NCBI GenBank assembly: GCA_041674765.1
Contig: JBAYVE010000002.1
Span: forward strand, 113,467-177,466
DNA from: Patescibacteria group bacterium
GTDB taxonomy: Bacteria; Patescibacteriota; UBA1384; XYA2-FULL-43-10; 1-14-0-10-43-13
DNA: 64,000 nucleotides
Direction of reading: 5' to 3'
The notes beneath the pieces are model-generated. The model saw nothing but the letters and a program-made list of their open reading frames with translations. It was not told the origin of the DNA and ran no database searches. Shown in pieces: positions 31,202 through 60,168 of this stretch. Numbering within the stretch: the stretch's first letter is position 1; the number at the start of each line of letters is the position of its first letter. The translations under genes were made by a program, and so were the position numbers.

Positions 31202-31295
31202 TTTTTTGGAATTTCTAGATGCAGATCCCTCGGCAGGTTTTCAACCGCTCGGGACGACAGAGGCGCTGCGATTTCTAAACAAATCCTAATGACCG

Positions 31296-31445
31296 TGATT
31301 CCAAAAACCTTGCTATTACCCTGTTTATTATTGTTCGAGGAGGAACGACGAGAACTTTGGTCATTTGTTAGTATGGTGACAGACTTCTCATTTTTAAGAG
31401 CACCATTCGAAGAATAAATACATTTGATGGGTTTTAGGGAATTAC
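31296..31445 (-). mobile_element. MITE-like 150-bp repeat element, copy A (inverted relative to copies B and C)
   Basis: The reverse complement matches copy B (35687-35838) nearly base-for-base, including gttctcgtcgttcctcctcgaacaata. The ends are tgattccaaaaacc and gggttttagggaat. Confidence 0.6.
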
Positions 31446-32724: not shown

Positions 32725-34074
32725 ATGAAATTTTTTAACACTTTGAGTTCGAAAATCGAAGAATTTAAACCGATGAATCCGAGCGAGGTTACGATGTACA
32801 CTTGCGGACCTACAGTCTATGATTCGGTCCATATTGGCAATCTGCGTGCCTACGTTTTTGTTGACCTTCTAAAAAGAGCCCTGATTGCCGAAGGCTACGG
32901 AGTGAAACACGTAATGAATATCACCGATGTTGATGATAAGACCATAAGGAAATCGGATGGCAAAAGGGATAAGATTAAATCTTTGACGAAGAAATATGAG
33001 GATAAATTTTGGCAAGATTTCGATGAATCGAACAATATCCGACCCGATGTTGTAACGCGGGCGACTGAGTATGTGGAGAAAATGATTGTTTTCATCGAGG
33101 AATTGATTAAAAAAGGTTTTGCCTACAAAGCTACTGACGGCTCGGTATATTTTTCGATTGCTAAATTCACGGATTACGGTAAATTGGCAAAGTTGGATTT
33201 GTCAGAGCTAAAATCTGGTGCCAGAGTGGCCCAGGATGATTATACAAAAGAGAATCCTGCCGACTTTGTCCTTTGGAAAGCCTGGGACGAAAAAGACGGC
33301 GAAATCTTCTGGGATTCTTCTTTGGGTAAGGGCCGTCCTGGCTGGCATGTCGAATGCTCTGTTATGTCTACTGATGTCCTAGGGCCAACTATCGATATCC
33401 ATGCCGGTGGCATTGACCTTGTTTTTCCCCATCATGAAAATGAGATTGCACAATCAGAAGCCAAATCAGGTCAGAAGTTTGTCAACTTTTGGGTGCATAA
33501 TGAGCATCTACTGGTTAGCGGACAGAAGATGTCCAAGAGTTTGTCTAATTTTTACACGCTGGATGATATCAGGGAAAAAGGATTTTCAGCACTTGATTTC
33601 CGCTACTATGCTCTTGGCGCTCATTACCGTTCCAAGATGAACTACACTTGGGAAGGAATTGAGGGGGCTAAAAATGCGAGAGAGAGGCTGATGCGTTTGG
33701 TTGCGGGAATGAAAAGTCATAACGGCAAGGTTATTCAAAAGTATCTATCACAATTTAATGAAAAAATCTTTGATGATTTGAATGTTCCGGAGGCATTGGC
33801 GATTCTTTGGGAACTTGTTCGAGATGCTGAAATCCAACCTGAGAATAAACTTACGACAATTCTGGAGATGGACAAAGTTCTAGGATTGAACCTAGGTAAA
33901 AAACAGGAACCAGAAGTAATTCCGGCCGAGATCATTAAATTGGCGGATGAGCGTAAACAAGCTAGAAATGATAAAAAATTTGGCAGATCAGATGAGATAC
34001 GGGAAGAAATGCTAGAAAAGGGTTGGAGAGTAGAGGACTTGGCTAATAATAATTATAAGATAGTTAAAGCATAA
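32725..34074 (+). CDS. cysS: cysteinyl-tRNA synthetase
   Basis: AAGGAG RBS. Carries the CGPTVYDSVHIGN (HIGH) and KMSKSLSN motifs. Confidence 0.9.
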   Translation: MKFFNTLSSKIEEFKPMNPSEVTMYTCGPTVYDSVHIGNLRAYVFVDLLKRALIAEGYGVKHVMNITDVDDKTIRKSDGKRDKIKSLTKKYEDKFWQDFDESNNIRPDVVTRATEYVEKMIVFIEELIKKGFAYKATDGSVYFSIAKFTDYGKLAKLDLSELKSGARVAQDDYTKENPADFVLWKAWDEKDGEIFWDSSLGKGRPGWHVECSVMSTDVLGPTIDIHAGGIDLVFPHHENEIAQSEAKSGQKFVNFWVHNEHLLVSGQKMSKSLSNFYTLDDIREKGFSALDFRYYALGAHYRSKMNYTWEGIEGAKNARERLMRLVAGMKSHNGKVIQKYLSQFNEKIFDDLNVPEALAILWELVRDAEIQPENKLTTILEMDKVLGLNLGKKQEPEVIPAEIIKLADERKQARNDKKFGRSDEIREEMLEKGWRVEDLANNNYKIVKA

Positions 34075-34176
34075 AGCTTAAAGCGAAAAGCATAAAGCCT
34101 AAAGCCGAAAGCGAAAAGCTTAAAGCATAAAGCAGAAAGCATAAAGCATAAAGCAGAAAGCATAAAGCATAAAGCG
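34064..34176. repeat. heptamer/nonamer tandem array (NNAAAGC)n, left arm of an inverted repeat flanking the four-helix-bundle gene
   Basis: ttaaagcataaagcttaaagcgaaaagcataaagcctaaagccgaaagc…cataaagcataaagcg. The array starts inside the cysS 3' end. A partner array with reversed polarity lies at 34541-34569 (ggctttcggctttgagctttttgcttta). Confidence 0.6.
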
Positions 34177-34182
34177 ATTGTG

Positions 34183-34536
34183 ATGAATACGATAAAAAAA
34201 TTTGAGGATCTCATTGTTTGGCAAAAATCCAGGTTATTGGTAACTGACTGTTATTTCACTTTTGAGTTTATCAAGGATTTTTCATTTAAAGATCAATTAT
34301 GCAGGGCTGCCGTTTCTATTATGAACAATATTGCTGAGGGTTATGAAAGAAAAGGAGACAAGGAATTCGGACGGTTTCTTTATATCGCAAAAGGCTCTTC
34401 AGGTGAATTTAGATCCATGCTTTATGCGGCTTCAGATCTAAAGTATATTACAAAAGACCAATTTTTAAATTTTTGTGGCCGATCCGAAGAGATCTCTCGG
34501 CTTTTAGTTGGTTTAATAAAAAGAATGAATACTTAA
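34183..34536 (+). CDS. four-helix-bundle protein (23S rRNA intervening-sequence-type protein family)
   Basis: About 117 aa. The IKKFEDLIVWQKSRLL…IAEGYER…GSSGEF pattern is typical of this family. Confidence 0.75.
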   Translation: MNTIKKFEDLIVWQKSRLLVTDCYFTFEFIKDFSFKDQLCRAAVSIMNNIAEGYERKGDKEFGRFLYIAKGSSGEFRSMLYAASDLKYITKDQFLNFCGRSEEISRLLVGLIKRMNT

Positions 34537-34576: not shown

Positions 34577-35626
34577 ATGAATTTTTGGAAAGATGTTGAT
34601 AGACCAATCAAAGTTCTCTCACCGATGGCCGGATATACCGACTCGGCTTTTCGTGTTCTGTGCCGCGAATTTGGCGCTGATGTGGTGATCACGGAGCTGA
34701 TTTCTGCAGATGCTATAGCCTACGGCAAATTTGAAATCCAAAATTTGAAATCCGAAACAAATTCTAATTCTAAAATTCAAAAACTAAATCAAACAATAGT
34801 TACAGGAAAAAATACTTCTACGGCGGAGATGTTATCTTTTTGCGAAGAAGAACGGCCTTTGGTGGTCCAATTATTTGGAAAATATCCAGCAAAATTTGGC
34901 ATAGCGGCTAAATGGGTTACTGAAAATTTAAAGCCAGATGGGATCGATATCAATATGGGTTGTCCCGCTAGAAAAGTGGTCAATTCTGATCATGGCGCAG
35001 CATTGCTAAAAAATCCTGATTTAGCTATCGAAATTGTAAAAGCAGTGAAGGAAAATACCGATTTGCCGGTCTCTGTCAAAACAAGACTTGGCTGGGACAA
35101 TGACGACCAAATTCTAGAGTTCGCGCCGAAACTCGCCAGCGCGGGGATTGACGCTTTGATTGTTCATGGGCGAACCTATAAAGATGGGTTCAAAGGGAAG
35201 GCTAGGTGGGAAAATATTTATAAGGTGAAAGCGTTGCTTCCGAATTTAACTGTAGTTGGCAACGGAGACATAGATTCAATTTTCAGTGTCATGCCCGTGA
35301 AGGCGGACCAGGAAAATAATGAATTGGATCCCCGGGTCAGGCCCGAGGATGACACTATTGGGCTGGACGGCTATGCCATCGGCCGAGCAACTTTTGGCAA
35401 GCCATGGATATTTTCGAAAGCTGAAGTTTCGAAAGACGAGTTGAAGGTGATAATTTTGCGGCATGCTAAACTTGTCTATCGAACAAAGGGTGATTATGGC
35501 ATGGTTGAATTTAGAAAACATCTCCTGGCTTATCTAAAAGATTTTCCAGGGGCTAAAGAGCTGAGGAAGAAAGCAGTTGCGATTAAAACACTTGATGAGG
35601 TTAAAGGAATTCTGGAATTGGTTTAA
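34577..35626 (+). CDS. dus: tRNA-dihydrouridine synthase with an in-frame repeat-derived insertion
   Basis: Flavin-binding TIM-barrel motifs are present (LSPMAGYTDSAFR…VQLFG…DINMGCPARKV…KTRLGWD). The segment YGKFEIQNLKSETNSNSKIQ is encoded by a copy of the AAATTYGAAATCC repeat. Confidence 0.85.
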   Translation: MNFWKDVDRPIKVLSPMAGYTDSAFRVLCREFGADVVITELISADAIAYGKFEIQNLKSETNSNSKIQKLNQTIVTGKNTSTAEMLSFCEEERPLVVQLFGKYPAKFGIAAKWVTENLKPDGIDINMGCPARKVVNSDHGAALLKNPDLAIEIVKAVKENTDLPVSVKTRLGWDNDDQILEFAPKLASAGIDALIVHGRTYKDGFKGKARWENIYKVKALLPNLTVVGNGDIDSIFSVMPVKADQENNELDPRVRPEDDTIGLDGYAIGRATFGKPWIFSKAEVSKDELKVIILRHAKLVYRTKGDYGMVEFRKHLLAYLKDFPGAKELRKKAVAIKTLDEVKGILELV

Positions 35627-35686
35627 GGTCTATCGTTCGAACAAGGTGAGAACTAATCTATTTTTACGTGAGAACAAAACAAAACC

Positions 35687-35838
35687 GTCATTCCCTAAAA
35701 CCCTATTAAATGTATTTATTCTTCGAATGGTGCTCTTAAAAATGAGAAGTCTGTCACTGTATTAATAAATGACCATAGTTCTCGTCGTTCCTCCTCGAAC
35801 AATAAGAAACAGGGAAATAGCAAGGTTTTTGGAATCAC
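35687..35838 (+). mobile_element. MITE-like 150-bp repeat element, copy B
   Basis: Begins immediately after the dus stop. The termini are cgtcattccctaaaacc and ggtttttggaatca. It shares an internal core with copies A and C. Confidence 0.6.
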
Positions 35839-35850
35839 AGAACGAAACTA

Positions 35851-35879
35851 TTGACAAGATAATAATCTTATGGTAATAT
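35851..35879 (+). promoter_or_regulatory. candidate promoter abutting MITE copy B (TTGACA-N17-TAATAT)
   Basis: ttgaca at 35851-35856 and taatat at 35874-35879. It would drive the structured leader and the GC-rich gene pair at 36352-38450. Confidence 0.4.
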
Positions 35880-36351
35880 AACAAAGTAAGTTAACGCTTA
35901 GGCGTTTAATTCACAAAGCGAGGGCTGGGACGCAAATTTTTTTTTATTTGCATTCCATTCTCGTTTTTTGTTTCTTCAAATCCGACTGGGACCTTGGGAC
36001 ATTAGGGCACTAGGTTTTCCGGCTGACTAGCAGAGAGGCCCCTTAAAAAATGCGGGTCTTGCCAAGTCAGCTTCTAGCGTTTCTCACCTTCTTCCTGGTT
36101 GGATTCGAGGAAACAATTTGTGAAAATTTTACAAATAGGTAGTCGAATGCTTGTACAATTGAACAAATTTGCTAAAAAAATAGAGCGTTGTAGAGATTAA
36201 AATAGTGTTTAAATATTCTGATTGCCAGAGTTAAGCTTTAACTTTGGCAAGCGGAATTTTCCGCTAATCGACTCAACCATGACGTGCCAATCCCATGGTG
36301 GGGTGGCACATTTTCATTTTGAGGACCTTTTAGGACAAGGAGGCGCACAAG

Positions 36352-37614
36352 ATGCGTAAACTGCTGGCCGTATTAACGGTAGTTCTTCTGCTGACCATTG
36401 CGGTCAGCACCGGCGCTTATGCCGAAGGATTTCTTTTGCTTCCACTGACGTTTACCCACAGCGAGAAGGAGGCTAAGGCAGCGATTTTTGTCGAGGCCAA
36501 CAAGTATGACCCCAGTGGAAAACCACAGGGTTGGACTGACGCGGAGAAAAAAATGCTCAGTCCCGTCTTCGGGAGCACGCTGGAACTCCGATTTACCGCA
36601 GCTCTAAAAACAGTGACAGAGAATAAGAGCCATAAGGTAAAACGGCCCGTTTCCACGGAGTGGTACAGCCCAAGATCAACTACATCGGGCGTGCCTTATG
36701 ATTATTCGGATAATGCGAAGGCACGTGCCGAAAATGAGGCACTGAGATTAAGGCCTTCGGATCCGACTGACGCGTGTTCGCCAGTAAAGCTCATGTTGTA
36801 TCCGGCGCAAGTGTTGAATAGGAACACTTATACACCGGGTATCAATAACAAGTCGATGTGGTTACGAGTGGTCAACGGATTGTACATCGTAGACCAGCTC
36901 AAGATGATCTTCAAGATTACCCAGGTATCGGGAAATGATATCTGGGTGCAGGTCGTCTGTCAGTTCGTTGCCACTTGCGACGAGATCTATCCTGTCGACA
37001 CCGGCAATGCCGGAAAGAAAACGGCGACACAGGATGTGATCGATGATATCTTCTGCCGGCTGGATGAGCTTGATGAGATAGACACTGATCATGCCGATCA
37101 GATCACCGCTGTAAAAAACGATATCTGCACGCTAGCGGCTCAGATCGGCATCATCACTGATGACATTGCCGAACTGAAGCGCAAGCTGAACGAGTATGCG
37201 GCGGAGGCTAACAAGCCAAGACCGCCAATCGTTGTCTACGGAGGTCACCAGGGTCAACCTGGTCCTATCACGCACCAGACTCGCAGAGTCAGGTTTACCA
37301 TCGCGTTCGTTGATTATATCAGCGCGAAGATGCCGGTCGACAGTAAAGGTCGGTATGTGGCCGGTTCTCTCGAGGAACTGCGCCGTTATGGCTGCCGTCT
37401 GACGGCAACGACGATGGAGTGTATCAGCGGGAACGAGTGGATCGGAGACGGGCTTGCCCGTTATCATGATACGCCCATTGAGGAAGGAGTTCAGATGTTC
37501 AGCATCCTTGCGGCGAAGGACGATTGGCGCGAGAAGACGATATTCGTGGACTTCGGCCTGGAAAATCGATATCTTGTTGTCCCTGTGAAGGGGCGAGAGT
37601 ATGAGGTGAGATGA
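36352..37614 (+). CDS. secreted hypothetical protein (GC-rich island gene 1)
   Basis: AAGGAGG RBS. The signal peptide is MRKLLAVLTVVLLLTIAVSTGAYA. Composition is clearly GC-richer than the flanks. Confidence 0.55.
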   Translation: MRKLLAVLTVVLLLTIAVSTGAYAEGFLLLPLTFTHSEKEAKAAIFVEANKYDPSGKPQGWTDAEKKMLSPVFGSTLELRFTAALKTVTENKSHKVKRPVSTEWYSPRSTTSGVPYDYSDNAKARAENEALRLRPSDPTDACSPVKLMLYPAQVLNRNTYTPGINNKSMWLRVVNGLYIVDQLKMIFKITQVSGNDIWVQVVCQFVATCDEIYPVDTGNAGKKTATQDVIDDIFCRLDELDEIDTDHADQITAVKNDICTLAAQIGIITDDIAELKRKLNEYAAEANKPRPPIVVYGGHQGQPGPITHQTRRVRFTIAFVDYISAKMPVDSKGRYVAGSLEELRRYGCRLTATTMECISGNEWIGDGLARYHDTPIEEGVQMFSILAAKDDWREKTIFVDFGLENRYLVVPVKGREYEVR

Positions 37615-38450
37615 TGATGAAATTATTCATACTGTTGGCGTTTATCGCCTGCTCATTCGCGGCAGCAATGCCTGCACCGGACAAATCTTATGCCCAGAAT
37701 CATTCTGGGCAGCCGGAGACGGCAATGACACCCGTTGGTCTCGAAGGCGCTGTTGTGACCACGGATTGGGTCAAACAGCGGATTACGATCATCATTCCTG
37801 CTCAGAAGATCGTCGGTGATGTCATCATCGACTTGCCGAAGATCTCAAACGAACAGGAAGTTCGTGCGAAAATCCGAGTGTGGATTCGCGAGCAGGAGCG
37901 TTGCCGCAAAGGCAAATGGAGCGCCAATTACAAGTGGGGCCTTGAGGAAAGGATGGTTCAACTTGTCCGCGGCAAAGCGGCGCATTTCCCGCTCTACCGT
38001 GACAACTTGAGCTACGATGCCCAATATCAGGGCATCGAAGTGATCGCGGAATTCGCGAAAGCGATCGGCTACACCTCGGAGATTTGTATCGAGGTGGATA
38101 TACCCATCGCGCCGAAATTTCCTTCTTTCGAGACGAGGAGCTCCTCCTTTACGTTAGAGTCGACGAAGCTTGGCGAACCGCTTCGTCCGACAATTCACAA
38201 GAAGGATCGTGAGGAAAAGCAGGAATGTAAAGAAACTCCTGTGGTAAGCGAAGCATTGGTTAACCCCGGGCTTCGCATTGCGGATCTGCTCCGCACTCGC
38301 GATTCCCAGATCGGGTACTTCGGGTATGGCTGGTGGAGTAGACAGATACAGCAGTGCACTCCACCTCAACCGGGGCCAAACCCGACCCCGCCCTGTACGC
38401 CCCTACCTCCGGTCCAAAACCCGCCCGGAATTTCGACCGGCAACACCTAA
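37611..38450 (+). CDS. secreted hypothetical protein with Pro-rich C-terminus (GC-rich island gene 2)
   Basis: ATGA overlap with the upstream gene. There is a signal peptide. The C-terminus is CTPPQPGPNPTPPCTPLPPVQNPPG. Confidence 0.5.
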   Translation: MMMKLFILLAFIACSFAAAMPAPDKSYAQNHSGQPETAMTPVGLEGAVVTTDWVKQRITIIIPAQKIVGDVIIDLPKISNEQEVRAKIRVWIREQERCRKGKWSANYKWGLEERMVQLVRGKAAHFPLYRDNLSYDAQYQGIEVIAEFAKAIGYTSEICIEVDIPIAPKFPSFETRSSSFTLESTKLGEPLRPTIHKKDREEKQECKETPVVSEALVNPGLRIADLLRTRDSQIGYFGYGWWSRQIQQCTPPQPGPNPTPPCTPLPPVQNPPGISTGNT

Positions 38451-38671
38451 GGAGTGTTTGCCGGATATATCCTCCCCCGACCGCCACGTGTAACGTGGGG
38501 CGGGGGTCTCTCTAGAGCGATCAACAGATCAATATTAAGGCATGAATATCAAGCTTTAAGTCGAAATGTTTATCCCTCTAGTAGCGATTAAAAAGAATTG
38601 CTATTGAATTATTTGAACAAGTAGGTATTAATTAATTAGCTTTATGCTAAAAGTTATCAAGAAAGGTAAAA

Positions 38672-39883
38672 ATGCGTTTTCTTAAATGCAAAAACGGTAA
38701 AATAAGTAAGTTCCTGTTCGCCGGAGCTGCTCTTTTACTGACTGTGTCTCAGTTTCTTACTCCCGGTGTCGCTTTGGCTGATGGCCCGAGATTCAATGAT
38801 GTACAGGGAGATTATCAGCTAATTCGTGGCACAAACAAGACCAGGAACGATTCTACTTGGCAAAATCCGGTTTCCGGAAATGCCGGAGATGAATTTTCCG
38901 CGATTGTTTACTATCACAACGGGGTACTAAACACGACCGCGAACGATGTCCGGATCAAGGTCAATTTGCCAAGTCAGACGACCAACAAATCGGCACTTAT
39001 TACGGCATCTATCTCTGCAGACAATGCACCTACAGTCACTGATACTATTGTAGGTGGCCAGATTGTTGGCAGCCACGGTTTAAGGGTAAATTTGGACCAG
39101 GATGCAGATATTACTTTTGTCCCAGGATCGACGAAATGGTTTTCTGATGTGACTTATGCAGATAAACCGGCTGGCCCTTTGCTTTTTGGGCAGGATGGTA
39201 GCGAATTATTTTCTACCGGTGGCCTGAAAATCGGCAATATCGCTGGGTGCTGGGAACATATCGGTTATGTTTCCTTCCGTTTCAAGACTAGTGCCAAGAC
39301 GGTAACCGCACCAAAGTTCACAATTGATAAGTTTGTCAGAAATGTGACTGTAAATGAAGCTAACTTCATCAAATACAATGATGCGAAGCCAACAGATATT
39401 TTGGAATATAAGATTGCATTTGCCAACACTGGTAACGCTTCAGCCAGCAATGTTTATTTAACCGATGTTATTCCCACAAACACTGCTTATGTCGCTGGAA
39501 GTACAAGGCTCTTTCTTGGTAATACCGCCACAAGCTTGCCTGATAAGATAACCGGAAATGATGGTCTGAATATCGGCACACTTGAAGCTGGCCAATCTGG
39601 TTATCTTCTTTTCAGAGTCAAAATTGCAAGCGGAGTCGCTAATGGCGAAATTCTCGTTAATACAGCAACATTGATTTTCAACAAAGAGAAAATCAGCGCA
39701 ACTGCACGGACAAAAGTGGTCGTTACACCAGTAACGCCCGGCCAACCAGACACAGGACCGGGTCTGCCCGAGACAGGAGCAGGTACCATACTGCTCTCGA
39801 CTCTAGCGGCGGCAGGAGCGATCATTTTCCTGAAATACAACCAAATCCGAACAAAAATGAAAATGCTTTCAAAGACTCTATAA
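38672..39883 (+). CDS. LPXTG-anchored cell-surface protein with DUF11-type repeats
   Basis: There is a signal peptide and a DUF11-like repeat (NVYLTDVIPTNTAYVAGSTRL). The C-terminus is LPETGAG followed by a hydrophobic helix and a KYNQIRTKMK tail, which is a sortase sorting signal. Confidence 0.75.
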   Translation: MRFLKCKNGKISKFLFAGAALLLTVSQFLTPGVALADGPRFNDVQGDYQLIRGTNKTRNDSTWQNPVSGNAGDEFSAIVYYHNGVLNTTANDVRIKVNLPSQTTNKSALITASISADNAPTVTDTIVGGQIVGSHGLRVNLDQDADITFVPGSTKWFSDVTYADKPAGPLLFGQDGSELFSTGGLKIGNIAGCWEHIGYVSFRFKTSAKTVTAPKFTIDKFVRNVTVNEANFIKYNDAKPTDILEYKIAFANTGNASASNVYLTDVIPTNTAYVAGSTRLFLGNTATSLPDKITGNDGLNIGTLEAGQSGYLLFRVKIASGVANGEILVNTATLIFNKEKISATARTKVVVTPVTPGQPDTGPGLPETGAGTILLSTLAAAGAIIFLKYNQIRTKMKMLSKTL

Positions 39884-42164: not shown

Positions 42165-42316
42165 GACCCAGCTACCCTAAAGTCCCCATACGAATTACGA
42201 ATGTACGAATCTTACGAATGCTGAAGGAAACTATTTGTTGGATTTAGTACCGGGACTTTAAGACCCAGCTACCCTAAAGTCCCCATACGAATTACGAATG
42301 TACGAATCTTACGAAT
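42151..42316. repeat. two identical 69-bp direct repeats (42151-42219 and 42248-42316), each a 9-bp-stem hairpin plus (TACGAAT)x4
   Basis: taccGGGACTTTAagacccagctacccTAAAGTCCCcatacgaattacgaatgtacgaatcttacgaat is present twice, separated by 28 bp. Confidence 0.8.
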
Positions 42317-42332
42317 ATAATTTTCCTAAAAT

Positions 42333-42430
42333 GTCATCCTCGGGCAGGCAACGCCATGACCCGGGGATCCAATTCCTTATACTGGATTCCAGCCCGCCAG
42401 CTGGCGGATCAAGCTCCAGTCTGGAATGAC
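42333..42430. repeat. GTCATCC-type palindromic repeat element (copy 1)
   Basis: gtcatcctcgggcaggcaacgccatgacccggggatccaattcc…cgccagctggcg…tggaatgac. The termini gtcatcc and ggaatgac are inverted repeats. There is an internal 12-bp perfect palindrome. Confidence 0.6.
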
Positions 42431-44621: not shown

Positions 44622-47600
44622 ATGAACCCGGACCAGTTTAAAAATCTTGATCGATTAGATCAGGAACTTGCACGAATTCAAAGAAGTACGAAGACATCGT
44701 GGCGGTTTTTTGCTGCACCACATGACTGGCTCCGAATGAAATTTCGCTGGTACTATAAGTGGCACCTAAACCCTTGGGCTCAAATGGTGCACAAATTCAG
44801 TTTTGGTCTTGTTACTGCAGGGATTTTGCTTATTGTGCTGACTCAATTCGGTCTGTTTGACTTTAATCAATCCACAAAAGCAGCAGCTGTTTCTGTTGAT
44901 ACCTCTACGACTGGGGAAGCGACCAATAATAGCTCTCAAAGAAAAACCTTTACCGATACTGTTAATAATACTCAATGGGCTTTTTATAATAATGGAGAAG
45001 CGATAGAATATTCGTACTCTTCTGATGGAAGTTCGTGGGTAAGCGCTGGAACATTGGCGCATAATACTCAATATTTTAGTACTAATTACAAAGCCATATC
45101 CGGCGCTGGTTACGTTCTCTTGGCTACGGAATGCAATACTTATGATGTTTGTATTTACCAAGGTTCATTGACTGGAACTAGCATTTCCTTTGGCAGTGCG
45201 GCAACTGTTTTTGACGGCGTATCTTTATCAAATAATTATTCTAGACCCACAGTTACTTATGATGGCGACAACTATATTTGGGTTGGAGCGGTAAAGGATT
45301 TCGGTAATTCTTCTCCCGATCACCTTCAAGCTCAGACTAAAAAATCATCTTCTGCTAACAATATCTCCGGCTGGGGATCAGTTCTGACAGCAGGTAATAA
45401 GATGAAAATACTCACCAATGTAATTATCCTCAATCAGTCCGGTTCAAGTATGTATCTTGTTGCCTCAAATGGTTCTAGTGTTACCGGATTTAAATATACA
45501 ACCGAAGTTCCGGTGTGGACGAGTGCCAATGATGGTGGGGAGGCTGCCTGGTTTGAGTTTGGGGATGGGGGATTCAGTGCGGCGGTTAATGCGGTAGCTA
45601 TATCCGGAACTGATGTTTATGTCGGTGGCAGTTTTATCAAAATTGATTCGTTGACAACGAACTTCATTGCTAAATGGAATGGCTCTTCGTGGTCTACTCT
45701 CGGAAGTGGTGTCGGCGGCCCAGTTTATGCCCTAGAGGTTGTTGGGACGGATCTTTATGTCGGCGGAAGTTTCAATAGCGCCGGAGCGGTTGCTGTCAAC
45801 AATCTTGCCAAATTTAATACACTTACTTCTGAATGGTCAAGTGTTGGTGGCGGCGTAGTTGGTGTGGAAGAAAATAGTGCCATTGTATATTCTTTAATCG
45901 AATCAAATTCCAGCCTCTATATCGGAGGAAGCTTTGTTTTAGCAGGTGAAACGAGCGCAAAATCAATTGCTAAATGGGATATTGCGGCTGAGTCATGGAG
46001 CGCTCTAGGGAATGGCCTTATTGATATGAATGATAGCACCGCAATTGTACGCAGTATTGCGATTGATGGTTCAAGTGTTTATGCAGGTGGGATGTTCGTT
46101 CAGGCTGGCGAGGTAGCCGCCAATGTAGTGGCGGTCTGGGATGGTAATTCATGGTCCAGTATGGGGTCTCCTCAAATGGATATGGCGATGACGGTCGCAA
46201 TTTATAATTCGGAAGTGTATATCGGTGGTCTGGGCTGGAGTGAGGGCAATGCAGCAAAATGGAATGGTTCTGCGTGGGAATATATTAATTTTACGAGCGA
46301 AGTCAGAACCCTTGTAGTCAATGATGGCAAATTGTATGCGGGTGGAGGTTTTCAGGCTCTTGGCGAGGATTCTTTTAAGTTTATCGCTGTTTATAATGGA
46401 GTTTCTTGGAGTGGGCTCGAGCAAGATCTAAACAATACTGTGTCTCAGCTAACTTTTTCAGGTAACGATTTATATACCGTGGGATCCTATACGGCTGCAG
46501 GCACTGTTGCAGCGAAGTATTTTGCAAAATATAGTGATGGACAATGGCAGGCCCAAGGGAGTGTTGGGGGGATAGACGGTGATGTAAATACAATCGCAGT
46601 TGATGACAGTAACAATATTTATATTGGGGGCACTTTCAGAACAGCTGGCGGTATTTCTGCTAACAGAATTGCGAAATATGACGGAGATACCTGGAGCGCT
46701 CTTGGGACAGGGACTTCTGGCGAAGTTAAGGTAATAAAAGTGGTTGATGATATTGTTTACGTAGGCGGATCCTTTGCAAGTGCGGGAGGGGAAGCTACCT
46801 CAAACATCGCGTCATGGAATCCTGCAACTAGTACATGGAGTGCTTTGGGCAGCGGCACCGATAGCACGGTTTATACACTTGCTGATTTTGGGAGTTCTCT
46901 ATACGCAGGAGGTAATTTCTCTACGGCTGGAGGAGGAGCTGCTAGCAAAGTGGCAACATGGAATATGACTGCAGGAACTTGGAGTGCTCTTGGTAGTGGC
47001 GTTAACGACTTAGTTCTTTCAGTCGCCACCGATCCAGAAGGGAATTTATATGTTGGCGGAAGCTTTACTTCGCCTGGCTCGAAAATTGCTAAGTGGAATG
47101 GCTTGGAGTGGTCGGCATTAGGAACTGGCGTCAATAATTTGGTTCGATCATTGATATTTGTTGATAGTAAACTATATGTGAGTGGACATTTTACAACGGC
47201 TGGCGGCGTATCGTCAAACTTGGTGGCAATGTGGGATGGGGAAAACTGGAATAGTATGGGTCTGGCTGGGAGCGTTGTATACACGATCGCTGCTGACGCT
47301 TCAAATAATATTTATGCTAGTGTTCCGACTAATGGAAACCGCAGTGCTCAAGTAAAATGGAATGGCGAAGTTTGGGATAACTATAGTAACGGTTTTGCTG
47401 GTTCTGGAGTTTATTCGTCTTTATTTATTGGCGATAGATTGTACATCGGCGGTTCAACAACAGTTTTTTCTTCTTATGGAATGAGCGGAACTTCCCTCGG
47501 CTACCTTGAGAATGCTATCGCAAGGAGTACAGATTCAGGGTCAGAAGTGTCTGCAGTAACCGACTCTCTCGGTAATATTCATCTGGCATATTCTGCTTGG

Positions 47601-50600
47601 TATAATTCCGGACGAGCAATGTATAGTAAGCATTTTGATGCATCTACCAGCCGATGGGGGATTGATTACTCGATTGGAACCGAAGGATCACAACCTTCTC
47701 CGAGCATTGCGGTAAATCCTTCCAACAATGATATTTATGTGTTTTTGATTGCTAGCAACAACAGTGTTAAATACTACAAATGGGCCCTATCGACTGATCC
47801 AGAAGTACCTTCGTCTTGGGAACTTGTCGATAATATTTATAGCACAGGCACTAATACAGGTGTTTCTGTTAGTGAATATGTTTCAGGGTATAAGCTTGGA
47901 ATGATATGGACCAACGGCACTGGCTCTCCTTATACTGTTTATGCTGATTCCTTAAATTTTATTACATATGGTACTTTGAGTGGTACTGTTTACACGGATC
48001 GTACGGCAGCTACTCATGCTGGTGCCGGTGTGCAGGTCAGATTGGTAATCGATGGTACTTTAAACGAAGAAGTTGCTACTACCGATGAGAATGGCGCTTA
48101 CTCTTTTGTAACAGAGGTTGGGACGAACGATAACGTCCTAATATTTGCTGATCCTAGCGCCGGCAATATTTATGGAAATGTCGTGATGACTGCAAGCGGT
48201 GCAGATTTAACGGGCATCGATATTTACGGTAATGCTGTTATTGCTAGAAACGAAACGGCTTCGCAGGTTACAAATGAAACATTTCAAGCTGCTCACGGCT
48301 CTCTCACAGAGACAGGGATATTGTATTCCTCCGGGTTACCCATCGATTCGTCGGTGGATGGAACTTATTTTGACCTTTTGGTTTGGCCTGGCAAGAGTAT
48401 GACAGCTAGTGCGGACGTTCGTGTTGAAGATCTTGTGATAGGTACTGGTGCTACTCTAAGTGGAATGGCCTCTGCAGGTGAAAATGCATTTATGGTTTCC
48501 GGAGACTTTGTGAATAATGGTACTTTTGTTGCCAATCAGCAAAAGCTTATAGTTGAATGCTACGAAGGCTTTTGTAATGGCAGCAGTTCCCAAATTGTCA
48601 CTACTGGGGGAACCAATGCCACCTTTTACGATATTGATATTTCTAAACAGATTGGAGATTCTGTAATTATCGATGGAGACCTTAAAATTACACATGATCT
48701 CAATGTGATACACGGAACAATTGATTTGCTCACAAATACCCCTGATATAGATCTTTCTAATGATCTCTATATTTATACAAATGGTGATATGACAACAATG
48801 CCAGGAGATCTAACTTTTCTTGGGGACAGTGAATCCGAGCTGAGATTGATGAATTCTGATGTTTTTAGCCATATCATCATCGGCGGAGGAGAGGGCAAAA
48901 TTTTATCGTTGATCACATCATCCCTCTTGGCTGATACATTTACTATCAATGCCGGCAATATTTTCAAGCCGCCATACGAAGCGACGGCCACGATCAATGT
49001 GAATTGGGAAAATTATGGTACTCTTGATACTTCAAGCGGAAACTTGGCGTTGGTTTTAGAAGGTTCCGCGGAATCAAAAATATACGGCAACAATACTTTT
49101 TCTCAATTTTACTGCACAACCCCTGATAAAACGATTAAATTTGAAAGTGGTAAAACTCAAAATATTACCGGTGCTTTGAATATTACTGGTACCTCTGGGC
49201 ATAATGTTGTCTTGGCAATGCAGGGCGGGACTTCTGGTGTCGACTTTTGGAATATCGATCCCGATACCAGCTCTAGGACGGTTGATTACGTTAAAGTTAC
49301 TGATTCGACAAATTTAGACGAAGTTTATATCGATCCTCCAAATTACGATCCGGAGAGCAGCCATACTGTAAATTGGTTTCCAGCCGCTCCAACGGTAACA
49401 ACAGGAGCAAAGGATTCTTATCTAACGACGGATTTTTCATCCGACTGGATTGAGGCAAAGGGATCCATCACTGCTACTGGAGGTAAAAATCCGACTATTC
49501 GGGGTTTAAAATATAGCACTGTTGGCGAGCAGGACGATAGCTCTTCGTTTGACAGCGGTGATTACTCAACAGGCGATTTCACAAAAACTCTTTCCAATCT
49601 TGAAGTGAATACTCTCTATTATATCCGCGCCTATGCTACAAATACCGGCGGGACAGGTTACGGCAGCTGGATTTCAATGTATACCAAGGCCAATACTCCG
49701 GGCATTTCCGTTGCCGGGGATTATGACGAGGTCAGCGGCTATCATCTGGACGCTACTATTTCGCCGAATCTAAATTCCGATGGTACAGAATATTACTTGC
49801 AATATTCAACCGACGGAACCAATTTTTATGATCCAACGGGAATGGCTTGGGGGCAGACTGAAAAATCATACATTTTCACAACTGATAAAGACGGTGCTCA
49901 TATTCAACCATATACCCAATACTGGCTAAAGGTTAAAGCTCGAAACGGGGATAATATCGAGACCGACTATTCATCTTCATCAGCCGATGTTACGCCGCCA
50001 GCTGCACCAACAATAACAAATCCGGCAGTTTCAAATATCTGCAGCACTACAGCAACTGTGTCTTGGACAGCTTCCGTAAGTGGGGACAAATACGACCTAT
50101 CTTATGGTACTGATGCTAGCGCCAGCAATACCGCAGTTATCAATAATATCGCAACAACTAGTTATGAGTTGACGAATTTAGTAGAAGGTGACAAGTATTA
50201 TTTCAAAGTAAGGGCAGTTTCGAATGCAAATGGAACGGGTGCTTATTCATCAATTTCTGATCCTTTTACTCCAACAGCATGTGTGGCTCCTATTGCGCCA
50301 AATGATTTTTCGGGGACCCCTGCTTCAGCCTCAAGTATTGATTGGTCCTGGACTGATAGCTCGACGATCGAAACGGGCTACAAAGTGCATAATTTGACGC
50401 ATAGTTCTTTGTCCGGCGATCTTCCTGCAGATTCTATTGCCTGGAGCGAACAAAGTTTGGAAGTCAATACTGCGTATACTCGCCACGTTAATATTTTTAA
50501 CGAGATAGGCAATAATGATTCAAATTCGGCCACGGTTTACACAAAAGCAAATACTCCGGGCCAACCATCGGTTAACCAAATTGATTCAATTTCCTTAAAA

Positions 50601-53600
50601 GTTATTGTTTCTGAAGGGACAGATAATCCAAGCTATACCCATTATGAAATATATGAAACAACTACCGGTAAATATGTCAGGCAAAGTGATGGCACGCTGC
50701 AAGCAACTGAGGATTGGCAAACTTATTCCGGCTGGGGTGGAGCGAGTGGAATAACAATCAACGGATTAGACAGCAATACAAGCTACACCTTCCAAGTTCG
50801 AGCTGCTAACAAAGCTGCTATGGGTCTAGACAATGTTTTGACAGATTGGTCTGCTAGCACAACCAATTCGACTTATCCAAAATATTCTATAACTATCTCT
50901 ATAGACGGCACGGGAGAAGGCACTGTTTCTCCTTCCGCTGTTGATCCGGTCAATAGAGGAACAAGTGTTGACCTTACAGCCTCTCCATCGATTAACTCAA
51001 ATTTCACAACTTGGACCGGATGCACCTCTGTATCTGGCAATGTTTGCCATCTTTCCAATATTACTTCGGACAAATCTGTCACAGCTACTTTTGCGATCAA
51101 AACTTTCACCGTCCAGATATCCAAAGCAGGAAACGGAGCTTCCGTAAGTGATACTTCGCCAAATACAGAGCAGACAGTAAATTATGACGGAAGCATCGAC
51201 ATCACGGCTTTACCCCATATTTCAGCGAACTTTACCTCCTGGTCTGGATGCGATTCTGTCGAAGGTGCAGTCTGTCACCTCACAAATATCACATCCAACA
51301 AATCTGTCACAGCTACTTTTGCGATCAAAACTTTCACTGTTGCGGCAACATCCACCGGTTGTGGTTCGGTTTCAAACTCTTCGCAAGCAATAAATTACGG
51401 CTCGGATTCTGCTGTTATGACCTTCATTCCAAACTCAGGCTGCTATGTCTTCAATGTTGTCGCCGATGGCGATTCAGTCGGTTCGCCATCTTCCAAACAA
51501 TTTACAAATATCACACAAAATCATACCGTCGACGTGGAATTTCGTGAATATCCTACGGCAACGCTATCGATTAATTCCGGTAGCCTAAAAACCAATCAGG
51601 ATACAGTATCATTATCAATAACCCACAATACTACTGCCTTGGAAATGAAAATATCAAATAGCTCTGATTTAACGGGTGCAGAGTATACGCCGGTTCGATC
51701 ATCTATTAGCAATTGGATTTTGGCCGATTCATCTAACGACGGCGTTAAGACGGTCTATCTAAAGGTGAAAGACTCAGTTGGCCATGAGTCTGGAGTGGTT
51801 TCCGCCACCATATCACTCGATAAAACTCCGACTGATGCCCCGCTTAACTTAGTGGCTGTTGGCGGTAAAACCACTACTTCTCTCTCCTGGAAGAATCCTG
51901 TGGCCACCGACTTTACAAAAATGGCGGTTTTTCGTTCTACATCGCCGAATTTCATTCCGGATCTGGGTGCAAACAAGATCGGCGACACCAGAAATAACCT
52001 TGAGCATAGTTATATCGATACCAACGTAGCCAATGGTGTTCTTTACTATTATCGGATAAAAGCAGTTGATGATGCTGATAATTATTCAATATCCTCTAAT
52101 GAGGCATCAGCAAAAGCTGATAACGATCTACCTTCCGCACCAGGTCTGCCGACAATCACCGAAAAAACAAACTCAATTGATGATATAGAGTACACAAATA
52201 GGGGAAATAATACGATAACATGGCCAGCCTCTACAGATCTTAACTCTGGCTTGAAGCATTACTCAATTATGCTTACCATACCCCCGCTAGCTTCGAACAA
52301 TTGCGCTGAAACCACTACCGCTAATTCCCTAACATGTAATTTTTCAGATGGTATCTATAGTATCGCCGTTCAGGCACATGACAATACCGGTAATTCCAGT
52401 GCTTTCTCGCAAACATTATATTTTAATGTCGATACGTCAGCCCCGACGCTGACTGAACCACTTAGTATCTCCGATGCTCCTACCGATAGGTCAGCGCTCG
52501 ATTACAAAGCGCTTCTCTCGTGGAGCAAAGCTTCAGATGGCAATACGGGCGGTATCAGCAGCGGAATACTGGGCTATATCGTCTATCGGTATGAAGATCC
52601 GATCTTACTTCCAAATCAAATAGTAACGAAGGTCAGTACTGATTCCAGCGGAAATCCAAGCTATGTTGACGCAATTACCCCTGATAAAAACTATGATTAT
52701 TCGGTGCTTGCTGTAGACAAAGCAATGAACCGCTCGAGTAAAATCTCAAATAGTATAAATGTTGCCGGAATATTGCCAGGGGAGGGAGAACTGATAATCT
52801 CTGATATAACATCAACACCATCTGATCAGATGGGAGAGAAAACATTTGCTACTATTTCGTGGAAAACATCTGTTCCTTCTACCAGTATGGTCAGTTATGG
52901 TCTTGATACCGGTTATTCTCTGCAATCTCCACTTGACACCGGTCTAAATACGATCCATACAATGGTACTTAGCGATTTGGAGTTCAGCAAAACTTATCAC
53001 TTCAAAGTTTTCTCCGAGGCGGCAAATGGAGATCGTGCAAATTCTGATGATTACACTTTTACTACCAAGGATATCTTGAAGGATGATGATGTCTGGAGTG
53101 TTATACCAGGGGTGATTATTCGAATTGACGATGTTATTTCAAGAATAATCAATGAAATCAACGTTCGAGGGACTGCGCAGACTGTAGCCTTGCCTGTCGC
53201 TAGTTCGGCTGCTGTAGTTGCGGCATCTGGGGCAGCTGCTGCCGCTGCGCCGATTGCCAATGCGATGACCCTCTTTTCATTCCCAGAATATTTACGGGCA
53301 TTGTTATATTCAATATTATCAATCGGTTCAAGGCGTAAAAGGCGGGAATGGGGCAAGGTTGTCGAAGAGGGGACTGGCATCCCGATCGCACAAGCACGGC
53401 TAAGCCTGATTAGGTTGGAAAAGAATATTGCCGGTAACCCAATTGAAAAGATAGTTGCAACTACATATTCTGACAAGAAGGGCAATTATGCTTTCATCGC
53501 GGAGAAAGGTTCCTACCGTCTCTCAGTAGATAAAGATCTTTACAAAGTCTCGAATCTAAAGGACGTTTATCATCCCTCTGATGTTATAAAGGTAAAGGAA

Positions 53601-54129: not shown

Positions 54130-54279
54130 TGATTCCGAAAACCCTAATAAACGTATTTATTCTTTAAATGGTGCTCTTAAAAATGAGAACTTCTGTCACT
54201 GTACTAATAAGTGACAGAAGTTCTCGTCGTTCCTCCTCGAACAATAAGAAACAGGGAAAGGGTAAGGTTTTCGGAATCA
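54130..54279 (+). mobile_element. MITE-like 150-bp repeat element, copy C (perfect 14-bp TIRs)
   Basis: Begins 14 bp after the giant-gene stop. The 5' TIR is tgattccgaaaacc and the 3' TIR is ggttttcggaatca. There is an internal perfect hairpin (CTTCTGTCACtgtactaataaGTGACAGAAG). Confidence 0.65.
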
Positions 54280-54564
54280 CGTTTGATGATTATTGACAGC
54301 TTACTTAAATTATGATAAATTAATAGAGTCCAAAGACCACTAGCCTTCGCTAAAACTACAGCCGGCAAACCAGCCCGGATAGCGATAGAAGTCTTGTGCA
54401 GGAATTCCGTTAGTATAGAGTAAATATTATTGATATATGTCTATCAGCATTCTGCTGCCATCATATACAATAAATTTTATACTTTCTTGATTTCTGCGCT
54501 AGTCGCAGATTTTTTTAAATAGAGTCACAAAAAAGTAACGAAATTTACGAAAGTAAAGGAATTC

Positions 54565-55083: not shown

Positions 55084-55103
55084 TCTTATAAACTGAGTAT
55101 AGT

Positions 55104-55144
55104 GTCATTCTCGGGCAGGCAACGCCATGACCCGGGAATCCAAT
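55104..55144. repeat. GTCATCC-type palindromic element (copy between rplJ and rplL)
   Basis: gtcattctcgggcaggcaacgccatgacccgggaatccaat. Confidence 0.5.
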
Positions 55145-55181
55145 ACATTAGGTTAATTAAAAACGTTTAATAAGGAGAATC

Positions 55182-59116: not shown

Positions 59117-59135
59117 TATGACGGAACCAAAACTC

Positions 59136-59163
59136 TTGACAAAAAATATAATTCTGATACAAT
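59136..59163 (+). promoter_or_regulatory. near-consensus promoter P1 (TTGACA-N16-TACAAT)
   Basis: ctcttgacaaaaaatataattctgatacaat. It shares the CTCTTGACAAAAA -35 context with P2. Confidence 0.55.
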
Positions 59164-59169
59164 GATCAG

Positions 59170-59530
59170 TTCTGAGGGTATGGTTCGACTTAGCTCGCCA
59201 TGAAGGAGTGCGGAAGTCCTCAGGAGGTAAATACATCTTTTAAAAAACAGATTACAGATAATACGGATATACAGAATATTCGTAAATTCATATCCATTCG
59301 TAATCTTCGTTTAGTACTTGCGTCAATGTGCTGGTAGTCAATCCATTTAATTGGAAATGTAGGTTCCCCCTCCGCCTGCATGATTATCAGCACAGTGCTG
59401 CAAGTCATATTACACCAATCTGATATTCTTCGACTCCGCGGTAATTCGAGGGTGGAGAAGTTCTCCACCTACTACGTAGAGTCGAACAATAGATATGTCA
59501 GAACGGCAGACGAGTTATTGATAAAGGGGC
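59170..59530 (+). ncRNA. candidate small RNA 1 (C-rich loop hairpin at 59357-59381)
   Basis: Lies downstream of P1. The hairpin is ATGTAGG-ttccccctccg-CCTGCAT. No RBS-led ORF is convincing. The 3' end is undefined. Confidence 0.3.
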
Positions 59531-59539
59531 GTATTCCTC

Positions 59540-59568
59540 TTGACAAAAACAAAGCAGTGTGATATAAT
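59540..59568 (+). promoter_or_regulatory. consensus promoter P2 (TTGACA-N17-TATAAT)
   Basis: ctcttgacaaaaacaaagcagtgtgatataat. Confidence 0.6.
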
Positions 59569-59574
59569 ATAAAG

Positions 59575-59790
59575 TGTTGGTTGATAGACCAGCAGTAAAA
59601 GATTACTTGATCATAAGATTGGCAGGTGGGAATGAGGGATCGGATGCCGATATAATGAATCGAAGAAATTGCAGGCGGCAGCGTCCTGCATAGCTCACAC
59701 CATCGCAAGATGGACAATGGGTTCCCCCTCCGCCCATTGAAGAGTTATGTAGGACATTGTTGCCTGTTTTTTAAAGCAAAACGGCATCAA
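59575..59790 (+). ncRNA. candidate small RNA 2 (C-rich loop hairpin at 59715-59739)
   Basis: The hairpin is CAATGGG-ttccccctccg-CCCATTG, with an 11-nt loop identical to that of sRNA 1. It is followed by a T-tract (tgcctgtttttt). Confidence 0.3.
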
Positions 59791-59930: not shown

Positions 59931-60063
59931 GGGAATGACAAAGAAATAGGGGAATGACAGAAAGTCTGGGGAATGACAAAGAAAACAGGAGAATGACAAA
60001 AAAAGGGGGAATATCAGAGAAATATGGGAATAATAGAGAAATAAGGGAATAGTAGATAGACAG
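59931..60063. repeat. iteron-like array: seven ~19-bp direct repeats of GGGAATGACAAAGAAA decaying 5'->3'
   Basis: gggaatgacaaagaaatag / gggaatgacagaaagtctg / gggaatgacaaagaaaacag / gagaatgacaaaaaaag / ggggaatatcagagaaatat / gggaataatagagaaataa / gggaatagtag. It is preceded by the hairpin ATTCCCGCcttcGCGGGAAT and lies 105 bp upstream of the 60169 gene. Confidence 0.6.
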
Positions 60064-60168
60064 AGAAGTTGGCAAACTATTGAAAATTTCTTTGCTCCGT
60101 ATAAAGCAGAGTCCGTCGATGCAATCCTGCTAGACGGTTGACACATATATCCTGAGGAGGATACGACG

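Follow-up and report, generated by a model that had tools for sequence, protein, structure and literature searches.

Does a segment rich in guanine and cytosine (GC) that adjoins a mobile-type repeat have to be a recently acquired genomic island? This question is raised by a locus of a Patescibacteria group bacterium, in which a long untranslated leader precedes two overlapping genes for secreted-type proteins, herein named A and B. The locus lies in a stretch of 64,000 nucleotides (nt), herein called the window, which is part of a 222-kb contig of a metagenome-assembled genome (ENA ERZ27247358). A preliminary description of the window took the segment as a horizontally acquired module under riboregulation that is bounded by a copy of a miniature inverted-repeat transposable element (MITE). 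Comparison with related genomes and metagenome contigs points to another solution. The region 35851–38507 probably forms one operon, which members of a Berkelbacteria-like group of Patescibacteria keep at a fixed syntenic position. Herein, the promoter with a rod-shaped leader RNA on one side and a surface-protein gene of the DUF11/DUF7619 type on the other side would be the conserved arms, A and B the part replaced by recombination, and the rod RNA a cis-acting leader element securing expression of the cassette. The coordinates of all features are collected in Table 1.

The locus in related genomes and the island question

The gene order around the locus is cysS, a 23S-rRNA-IVP protein gene, dus, the leader with A and B, the DUF11/DUF7619 gene, prfB, and a membrane protein gene. 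The nearest genomes in the species-representative collection, several of which are labelled Candidatus Berkelbacteria, have dus proteins with 51–65% identity, and at this distance the synteny cysS–dus–(2.5–4 kb)–DUF11–prfB is kept. The gap of every syntenic relative holds two open reading frames (ORFs) with signal peptides, 340–460 and 220–310 amino acids (aa) in length, which a transitive network of blastp matches ties to A and B. For one of these loci (L003; loci of relatives carry L numbers) the pair matches directly, with 32% identity for A (E = 8e-35) and 23% for B (E = 4e-9). Because a homologous gene pair occupies the same site in every syntenic relative, the segment does not qualify as a foreign island. 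Sister genomes lacking the segment, the occurrence of which the preliminary description had proposed to check, were not encountered: gene pair, leader RNA, and promoter stand at the same site in the relatives with conserved synteny.

The base composition that had suggested an island is real. GC content in 500-nt windows across 36501–38500 is 0.49–0.56 vs ~0.41 for the whole window, and the GC content of third codon positions (GC3) reaches 0.59 in A and 0.62 in B, compared with 0.31–0.47 for all other genes of the window; the sole exception is an ORF at 60169–61017. In addition, A and B belong to no Pfam family and are almost without homologues, and a MITE-like repeat stands at the left edge. 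All of this would suit a recent arrival from a GC-richer donor that brought its own regulatory leader. The GC3 of A and B, however, is raised in 12 of the 15 loci from genomes and in the majority of those from metagenomes, exceeding that of the neighboring genes by 0.15–0.35 in most lineages. Since this excess is common to the orthologous pairs of most relatives, the deviant composition is no sign of a recent arrival. Context was read for four homologues of A: two lie in the same locus context (L135 and L137) and two on short contigs that show the gene pair only (L003 and L136). No GC-rich outsider is among them, and the genes flanking the A homologue at L137 have a normal GC3 of 0.44–0.46.

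The repeat is ~150 nt long and occurs in three copies, 31295–31442 (−), 35694–35838 (+; copy B), and 54132–54281 (+; copy C), which are 84–93% alike, all intergenic, and end in terminal inverted repeats of ~12 nt (ATTCCnAAAACC / GGTTTTnGGAAT). Short length, lack of coding capacity, multiple copies, and terminal inverted repeats are the properties of a MITE; at none of the three copies is a target-site duplication apparent. The loci of all relatives lack the repeat. Copy B represents an insertion specific to this lineage, placed past dus and ahead of the conserved promoter, and not an island boundary. Of other mobility signs sought at the borders (integrase, tRNA, direct repeats), none was found; the repeat is present on one side only. 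A recently acquired, MITE-bounded island is thus highly improbable. What the preliminary description had seen as horizontal acquisition survives in another form, that is, as lateral exchange of the mature parts of A and B within the clade; the MITE boundary has to be given up. For genome scans this calls for caution, since a GC-deviant segment beside a mobile repeat would normally be annotated as an island and here is a core locus.

Two further observations concern the repeat. Copies B and C each have a TTGACA promoter within ~15 nt downstream, and copy C, which contains a perfect internal hairpin of 16 base pairs (bp), directly precedes the promoter of the L10 (rplJ) leader.

Exchange of the gene pair between lineages

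The proteins A and B diverge much faster than their surroundings. Where housekeeping proteins of two lineages are 82–86% identical, A is 63% and B 44% identical, and at 60–70% identity of the housekeeping proteins both drop to ~20%. The nature of this variation is best seen in close pairs of loci. L006 and L111 are collinear with 81–88% nucleotide identity over >12 kb, and their rod RNAs are 98% identical; no similarity exists from ~70 nt into A through the end of B. The A–B pair of L111 is closest to that of L004 (67% at the nucleotide level; A 68% at the amino acid level), whereas the flanks of L111 and L004 are only 66–75% identical and the DUF11 protein of L111 shares 90% of its amino acids with L006 vs 44% with L004. 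For L090 and L104, the rod RNA is 97%, the DUF11 gene 93%, and A 66% identical, and B is unalignable. Several further strain pairs show the same pattern. Overall, flanks can be 81–98% identical around mature A and B that do not align, and in the strain comparisons similarity returns directly after B. Both marks of a recombining cassette are hence found, namely unalignable alleles between conserved flanks and an incongruent relatedness of cassette and flanks. By these sequence comparisons, the mature part of A together with B is a hypervariable cassette, one that homologous recombination replaces between lineages of the clade. Replacement is preferred over mere fast divergence because the flanks of L006 and L111 are conserved while the cassette of L111 resembles that of L004. 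The side of the leader and its RNA and the region of the DUF11 gene serve as the conserved arms for this recombination.

On the 3′ side, B is followed by the DUF11 gene wherever the sequence of a locus extends far enough. Its product matches DUF7619 (6e-10) and DUF11 (1e-6) in Pfam, and at its C terminus the LPETG motif is followed by a hydrophobic stretch and a basic tail, which together form a sortase signal. Between B and this gene lies the GC-rich palindrome 38475–38507, which is likely the operon terminator and also the 3′ edge of the variable cassette. Its U-tract is weak (UCUCUCU), and it was not called by a simple terminator scan.

As read from the sequence, the N termini of A and B show a signal-peptide pattern of a basic, a hydrophobic, and then an AxA-type part. 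The product of gene A is named hypothetical protein WC107_02685 at NCBI. Searches of A and B against Pfam and the PDB sequences yielded no match but only subthreshold noise, such as DUF1664, Tox-GHH, and SlpA at E = 2.8; among 37 family members of A and 27 of B, Pfam detected collagen triple-helix repeats in four of the 27 B proteins and nothing else. A word-based search found a single distant homologue of A. An exhaustive HMMER search over 1.84 billion representative proteins gave eight non-self matches, of which seven are real; the eighth, a repeat protein of 3392 aa, looks spurious and was set aside. For B, a single-sequence search of 5.8e9 proteins returned only B itself. The B family is characterized by proline-rich C termini.

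Protein A is laid out as a signal peptide, a β-rich and conserved N-terminal domain (~44–208), a long α-helix (227–286), and a C-terminal β-domain (311–419). The AlphaFold model of A, made from an input of eight sequences, has a mean predicted local distance difference test (pLDDT) score of 62 and ~80 in the N-terminal domain, with the 60-residue helix placed between the β-domains. In this model, A would consist of Ig-like β-domains and a coiled coil. The AlphaFold2 model of B is unusable at a pLDDT of 37, its profile search having yielded only three proteins. Because of the signal peptides and the sortase-anchored neighbor, A and B might be components of the cell surface, perhaps with a fibril or coat role.

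The GC3 excess of the cassette calls for an explanation of its own. It does not stem from the composition of a donor, since no outside donor exists among the A homologues, and it does not reflect expression-linked codon use, since the ribosomal-protein genes of the window are normal (GC3 0.40–0.43). Most economically, the excess would be a by-product of frequent recombination via GC-biased gene conversion. Recombination and GC content have been reported to be linked in bacteria (PMC4450053).

Two other ORFs of the window can be compared with A and B in this respect. A single ORF of 3164 aa (44622–54116, +) carries fn3- and Ig-like surface domains according to precomputed Pfam matches and has an ordinary GC3 of 0.37, so that large surface proteins of this genome do not all share the excess. 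A third ORF of high GC3 in the window (60169–61017, +; 282 aa, GC3 0.58) encodes a signal peptide followed by MPAPDK, a motif also present in mature B, and then a hydrophobic helix in the interior and stretches rich in proline. It was considered as a paralogue of B and rejected, the MPAPDK motif being all that the two have in common and the match not being significant. Upstream of it (59932–60070) lie approximately seven tandem copies of a ~20-nt GGGGAATGACAAAGAAA-like unit, and a GAGGAGG site also precedes the ORF. This ORF probably corresponds to the second GC island of the preliminary description.

Structure, linkage, and possible role of the leader RNA

The promoter of the operon is of the σ70 type with an extended −10 region, and transcription would start near 35886. 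Of the 14 relatives scanned, 13 have a promoter of the form TTGACA-17-TGnTAnnnT, its TTGACA being perfect, 43–225 nt upstream of the rod RNA, and L020 shows only a weak match; in relatives the promoter lies ~15–220 nt past the upstream gene, mostly <90 nt. No ORF of at least 40 aa exists between 35885 and 36221 on either strand. The 469-nt leader (35886–36354) folds with −162.4 kcal/mol compared with −117.9 ± 5.4 kcal/mol for dinucleotide shuffles (z = −8.2). GGAGG-type sites precede the start of A by ~6–10 nt in most relatives, and a few have weaker purine-rich sites. Near the Shine-Dalgarno (SD) sequence, TGGCAC...TTGATAAT was considered as a σ54 promoter or a second σ70 promoter and rejected; the −12 element is absent, and the start would fall inside the SD sequence.

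When the spacers from dus to A are compared, a block of ~155 nt stands out by 70–80% nucleotide identity in all relatives (nhmmer, blastn), the flanking protein genes being far more diverged. This block, herein called the rod RNA, was found by nhmmer in 17 loci. RNAalifold folds it into a single long, unbranched, and irregular hairpin of five helices with 50 base pairs, 33 of which show compensatory double changes. Paired are 94.5% of the alignment cells, compared with 39–56% when the 3′ partners are slid by 1–3 columns; none of 500 column shuffles attains the observed covariation, and 34 metagenome sequences from outside model building give the same pairing statistics. On the minus strand the value falls to 78.2%, and G-U pairs make up 17.8% of the cells. 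The rod RNA holds its structure on the plus strand and not on the minus strand and is thus oriented like A and B.

The closing stem of the rod measures 23 bp, helices 3–5 covary, and the largest loops are one-sided with 6–9 nt, so that no large central bubble is formed. Among 46 distinct sequences, the elements that never or hardly vary are CUGGGA and GGG in the 5′ strand, CUCnCCUUCUUCCUGG in the 3′ strand, and UAAAA in the apical loop. CUGGGA/GGG and CUCnCCUUCUUCCUGG pair with each other as a stem that includes tandem U-G/G-U pairs, a 3×3 pyrimidine loop, and a bulge. A K-turn or loop-E motif in this invariant lower stem was rejected by inspection, as no tandem G-A pairs are present.

With Rfam 15, the leader has no match at gathering thresholds in a scan of the whole window; at E ≤ 10, the region 35600–36400 gives only matches at chance level, none of them over 35969–36115, and the 6S model RF00013 does not match the rod RNA at this threshold either. 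For the loci of seven relatives, the sole Rfam match is an L10 leader elsewhere in the locus. ARAGORN detects no tRNA or transfer-messenger RNA in the window, viral contigs scanned with the rod RNA pattern gave zero matches, and no description of such an RNA or surface locus of Patescibacteria or Berkelbacteria was found in the literature searched. Judged by its covariation, the rod RNA is regarded as a new and well-supported family of structured RNAs.

A covariance model (R1) built from the 17 sequences finds one copy per locus, on the plus strand relative to A, in 58 loci (19 from genomes, 37 from metagenomes, L135, and L137). It detects genome loci outside the seed at the same position (L026, E = 3e-11; L032, E = 0.006), confirms 37 of 51 metagenome contigs that had been fetched with a degenerate core pattern, and also recovers the loci of the A homologues P0004 and P0009. 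The order rod RNA, A, B, DUF11 gene is kept in every locus with enough sequence. In L010, L018, L020, and L021 an extra gene is inserted between dus and the rod RNA, yet the rod RNA remains beside A. The extra gene, which L013 has as well, encodes ~265 aa (MxxxLxPxxGLPVxL...), and in L018 the leader downstream of it reaches ~1 kb. From the rod RNA to the ATG of A the distance is 72–515 nt, and the spacers are unrelated in sequence and each structured individually. The rod RNA and A–B are most simply seen as cotranscribed because a conserved promoter stands upstream, usually no promoter separates the rod RNA from A (a promoter-like site is found there in only 3 of 15 loci), and no terminator-like signal follows directly after the rod RNA.

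These data bear on whether the rod RNA is an independent or excised trans-acting molecule, such as a 6S-like RNA, a protein sponge, or a base-pairing small RNA. Conservation far above anything downstream, a strong promoter of its own, a rod with paired 5′ and 3′ ends, and the invariant blocks, which resemble binding sites, would suit such a molecule, and the closing stem would be long enough for RNase III. The linkage to A–B in 58 loci, maintained even where the linkage to dus is broken, together with the missing terminator after the rod, the usual lack of a second promoter for A, and the absence of a large central bubble and of any 6S or other Rfam match, makes a trans-acting RNA unlikely.

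Could the rod RNA instead be the sensor of a riboswitch or of a protein-responsive attenuator? The candidate platform would be the hairpin GTGCCA...TGGCAC (36284–36309), acting as a terminator or by sequestering the SD sequence. A conserved structured RNA in a 5′ leader and a hairpin with a U-rich tail just before the SD sequence, in the window and in some relatives, would suit such a device, and the pyrimidine run CCUUCUU in the 3′ strand of the rod is, as read from the sequence, anti-SD-like, being complementary to AAGGAGG. A hairpin of the type G[UG][GU][CA]C...GCAC with an A/U-rich tail occurs ~15–60 nt before the start codon in about one-third of 43 loci, and among 13 sequences selected by hand three of its seven base pairs covary. 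The U-tract is poor or absent in several loci, the hairpin of the window is not called by a simple terminator scan, and sensor and platform are not found coupled across loci. With unrelated spacers of variable length, no conserved switching partner, an unbranched helix without a junction pocket, and no Rfam riboswitch match, this device is doubtful, and a cis-acting rod RNA without an adjacent platform is favored.

The palindrome might also act as DNA, for instance, as a folded single-strand or cruciform recombination site at the 5′ boundary of the cassette, similar to attC. The upper helices keep their structure more than their sequence, and the similarity of L090 and L104 breaks directly after the element; for L006 and L111, in contrast, the break lies 300 nt farther on, inside A. 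No integrase or recombinase gene is found nearby and no cassette array, the conserved promoter is directed into the element, and the strand asymmetry and the share of G-U pairs suit RNA. A DNA site is highly improbable.

The preferred mechanism, a cis-acting leader, can be outlined as follows. A strong σ70 promoter would drive a ~470-nt untranslated leader carrying the 147-nt rod RNA, followed by the translationally coupled genes A and B. The rod RNA would act in cis on its own transcript, independent of distance and downstream sequence, and from its place outside the swapped segment it would secure expression of whichever cassette follows. This rests on the strict cis linkage, the conserved promoter, the missing adjacent expression platform, the variable distance and sequence, the invariant lower stem that resembles a macromolecular binding site, and the position just outside the swapped segment. 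By analogy with other leader elements, the rod RNA may tentatively be assigned as a protein- or RNA polymerase–binding element that prevents premature termination within the long leader and the compositionally atypical genes (processive antitermination or anti-Rho type), to which its position and distance independence fit. A hairpin for RNase III-type processing or for stabilization would be a nearly equal alternative. More speculatively, the rod RNA might represent a new class of cis “expression adaptor” placed outside a recombination hot spot, with the GC3 excess as the footprint of intense GC-biased gene conversion.

Several points speak against parts of this interpretation. A scan found no canonical intrinsic terminator in the leader that an antiterminator could overcome; no EAR match was obtained with Rfam, and no dedicated NusG paralogue or gene for an RNA-binding protein is linked to the locus. 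Transcription start, cotranscription, and any processing are deduced from motifs in the DNA. The family was gathered via dus synteny and with a pattern derived from its conserved core; copies elsewhere may therefore be missed. For a surface location of A and B, the indications are signal peptides, Ig-like folds of a generic kind, a few B proteins with collagen-like tails, and the neighboring sortase substrate, none of which is specific. L006, L008, and L015 show only a small GC3 excess in these genes, which does not favor gene conversion.

For the leader and the operon, much of the preliminary description was borne out: the promoter is present, the leader is free of ORFs and structured, AAGGAGG precedes two genes that overlap by ATGA and carry signal-peptide patterns, GC content is raised, and a GC-rich palindrome closes the segment. 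The three hairpins it had named all exist, two of them displaced by 2 nt, and a few coordinates of the description are off by 1–2 nt. The first (TTAACGC-ttag-GCGTTTAA, 35891–35909) is imperfect, as one extra T forms a one-base bulge; the second (GCGGAATTTTCCGC, 36251–36264) is exact; and the third, at 36284–36309, is the only one with comparative support, in approximately one-third of relatives. Riboregulation, as proposed, is plausible at the RNA level; the conserved part is the rod RNA at 35969–36115 and not the hairpins to which attention had been drawn.

Further features of the window and relation to known systems

Table 1 Features of the leader–A–B operon and its immediate surroundings
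Feature	Position	Strand	Remarks
MITE-like repeat, copy B	35694–35838	+	Between dus and operon promoter; outside the conserved system
σ70-type promoter, extended −10	35851–35879	+	TTGACA (35851–35856), 17-nt spacer, TGgTAATAT (TAATAT at 35874–35879, TG upstream of −10)
Conserved structured leader RNA (rod, five helices)	35969–36115	+	147 nt; covariance-model match 35967–36118
Second leader hairpin GTGCCA...TGGCAC, then AUUUUCAUUUU	36284–36320	+	Ends ~30 nt short of the Shine-Dalgarno sequence
Shine-Dalgarno sequence AAGGAGG of gene A	36337–36343	+	8 nt before ATG at 36352
Gene A, secreted-type protein, 420 aa	36352–37614	+	Signal-peptide pattern
Gene B, secreted-type protein, 279 aa	37611–38450	+	ATGA overlap with stop of A
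GC-rich palindrome, likely operon terminator	38475–38507	+	25 nt past stop codon of B
DUF11/DUF7619 surface-protein gene, C-terminal LPETG	38672–39883	+	Constant 3′ neighbor of the cassette

Other repeats and noncoding units are present in the window. A tandem array at 34050–34196 with a period of 7 nt (xAAAGCx) comprises ~20 units and lies between cysS and the gene for the 23S-rRNA-IVP protein, a four-helix bundle. A 64-nt repeat containing TGTCATYCTCGGGCAGGCAACGCCATGACCCGGG occurs at 42316–42379 and 55087–55150 with 83% identity; one copy separates the L10 and L7/L12 genes, and the other adjoins a perfect direct repeat of 69 nt (42151–42219/42248–42316). Within 59130–59760 (+), two strong promoter-like sites are seen at 59137–59165 (TTGACA-17-TACAAT) and ~59540–59570 (TTGACA...TGTGATATAAT), and ~200 nt past each of them stands GGTTCCCCCTCCGCC (at 59363 and 59721). 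This arrangement suggests two related noncoding units, for which Rfam has no match.

The significance of the locus is threefold. The rod RNA family shows unusually clean covariation, with 33 compensatory pairs among 46 distinct sequences, and comes from Patescibacteria, which are nearly unexplored for regulatory RNA. The locus looks like the fastest-diversifying surface-protein locus of these episymbiont-type bacteria, and its proteins are likely relevant to contact with the host or with phages. In addition, conserved arms, exchanged cassettes, and a GC3 excess found throughout the clade against an AT-rich background provide a compact natural system that could separate GC-biased gene conversion from selection as the source of GC heterogeneity inside bacterial genomes. 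If the rod RNA is indeed an expression adaptor beside a recombination hot spot, a strong footprint of gene conversion would be present in a group that is usually regarded as recombination-poor.

Recombining surface cassettes are known from the S-layer cassette of Clostridioides difficile and from capsule and O-antigen loci, which are usually AT-rich compared with their genome. The present locus resembles them in its unalignable alleles between conserved flanks, incongruent relatedness, atypical composition, and secreted- or surface-type products, the latter as judged from sequence. It differs from them in being GC3-rich in ~50 lineages, in consisting of two small genes of unassigned fold, and in residing in a Patescibacterium with a reduced genome.

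With respect to the rod shape and the strong promoter, the leader RNA resembles 6S RNA, a rod of 150–185 nt with paired ends and a strong promoter that is sometimes cotranscribed with a downstream gene. Unlike 6S RNA, it has no large central bubble, no Rfam 6S match at E ≤ 10, and is tied to one operon. Another parallel is the S-layer gene slpA of Lactobacillus acidophilus, whose 5′ untranslated leader sequence (UTLS) reportedly stabilizes the mRNA (Narita et al. 2006, as cited in PMC3666127). Common to both are a strong promoter, a long structured untranslated leader, a strong SD sequence, and a fast-diverging protein with a signal peptide. S-layer leaders are ~100–200 nt long, occupy the extreme 5′ end, and are not known to be conserved in distant relatives, whereas the rod hairpin begins 40–220 nt past the predicted start and keeps 70–98% identity clade-wide.

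Leader elements that serve long or foreign surface operons form the last group for comparison. They include ops/JUMPStart with RfaH, the 5′ untranslated regions associated with UpxY in Bacteroides, the leader hairpin of LoaP, EAR, and put of phage HK022. As in these systems, the element is contained in the long 5′ leader of a variable surface operon and lies outside the variable part, and the action proposed for it here is in cis and independent of distance. Compared with ops (8 nt of DNA), put (two short stem-loops), and EAR (pseudoknotted), the rod RNA is a 147-nt unbranched structure, and in contrast to systems of the ops/RfaH type it has no linked NusG paralogue, no evident leader terminators, and no Rfam EAR match.

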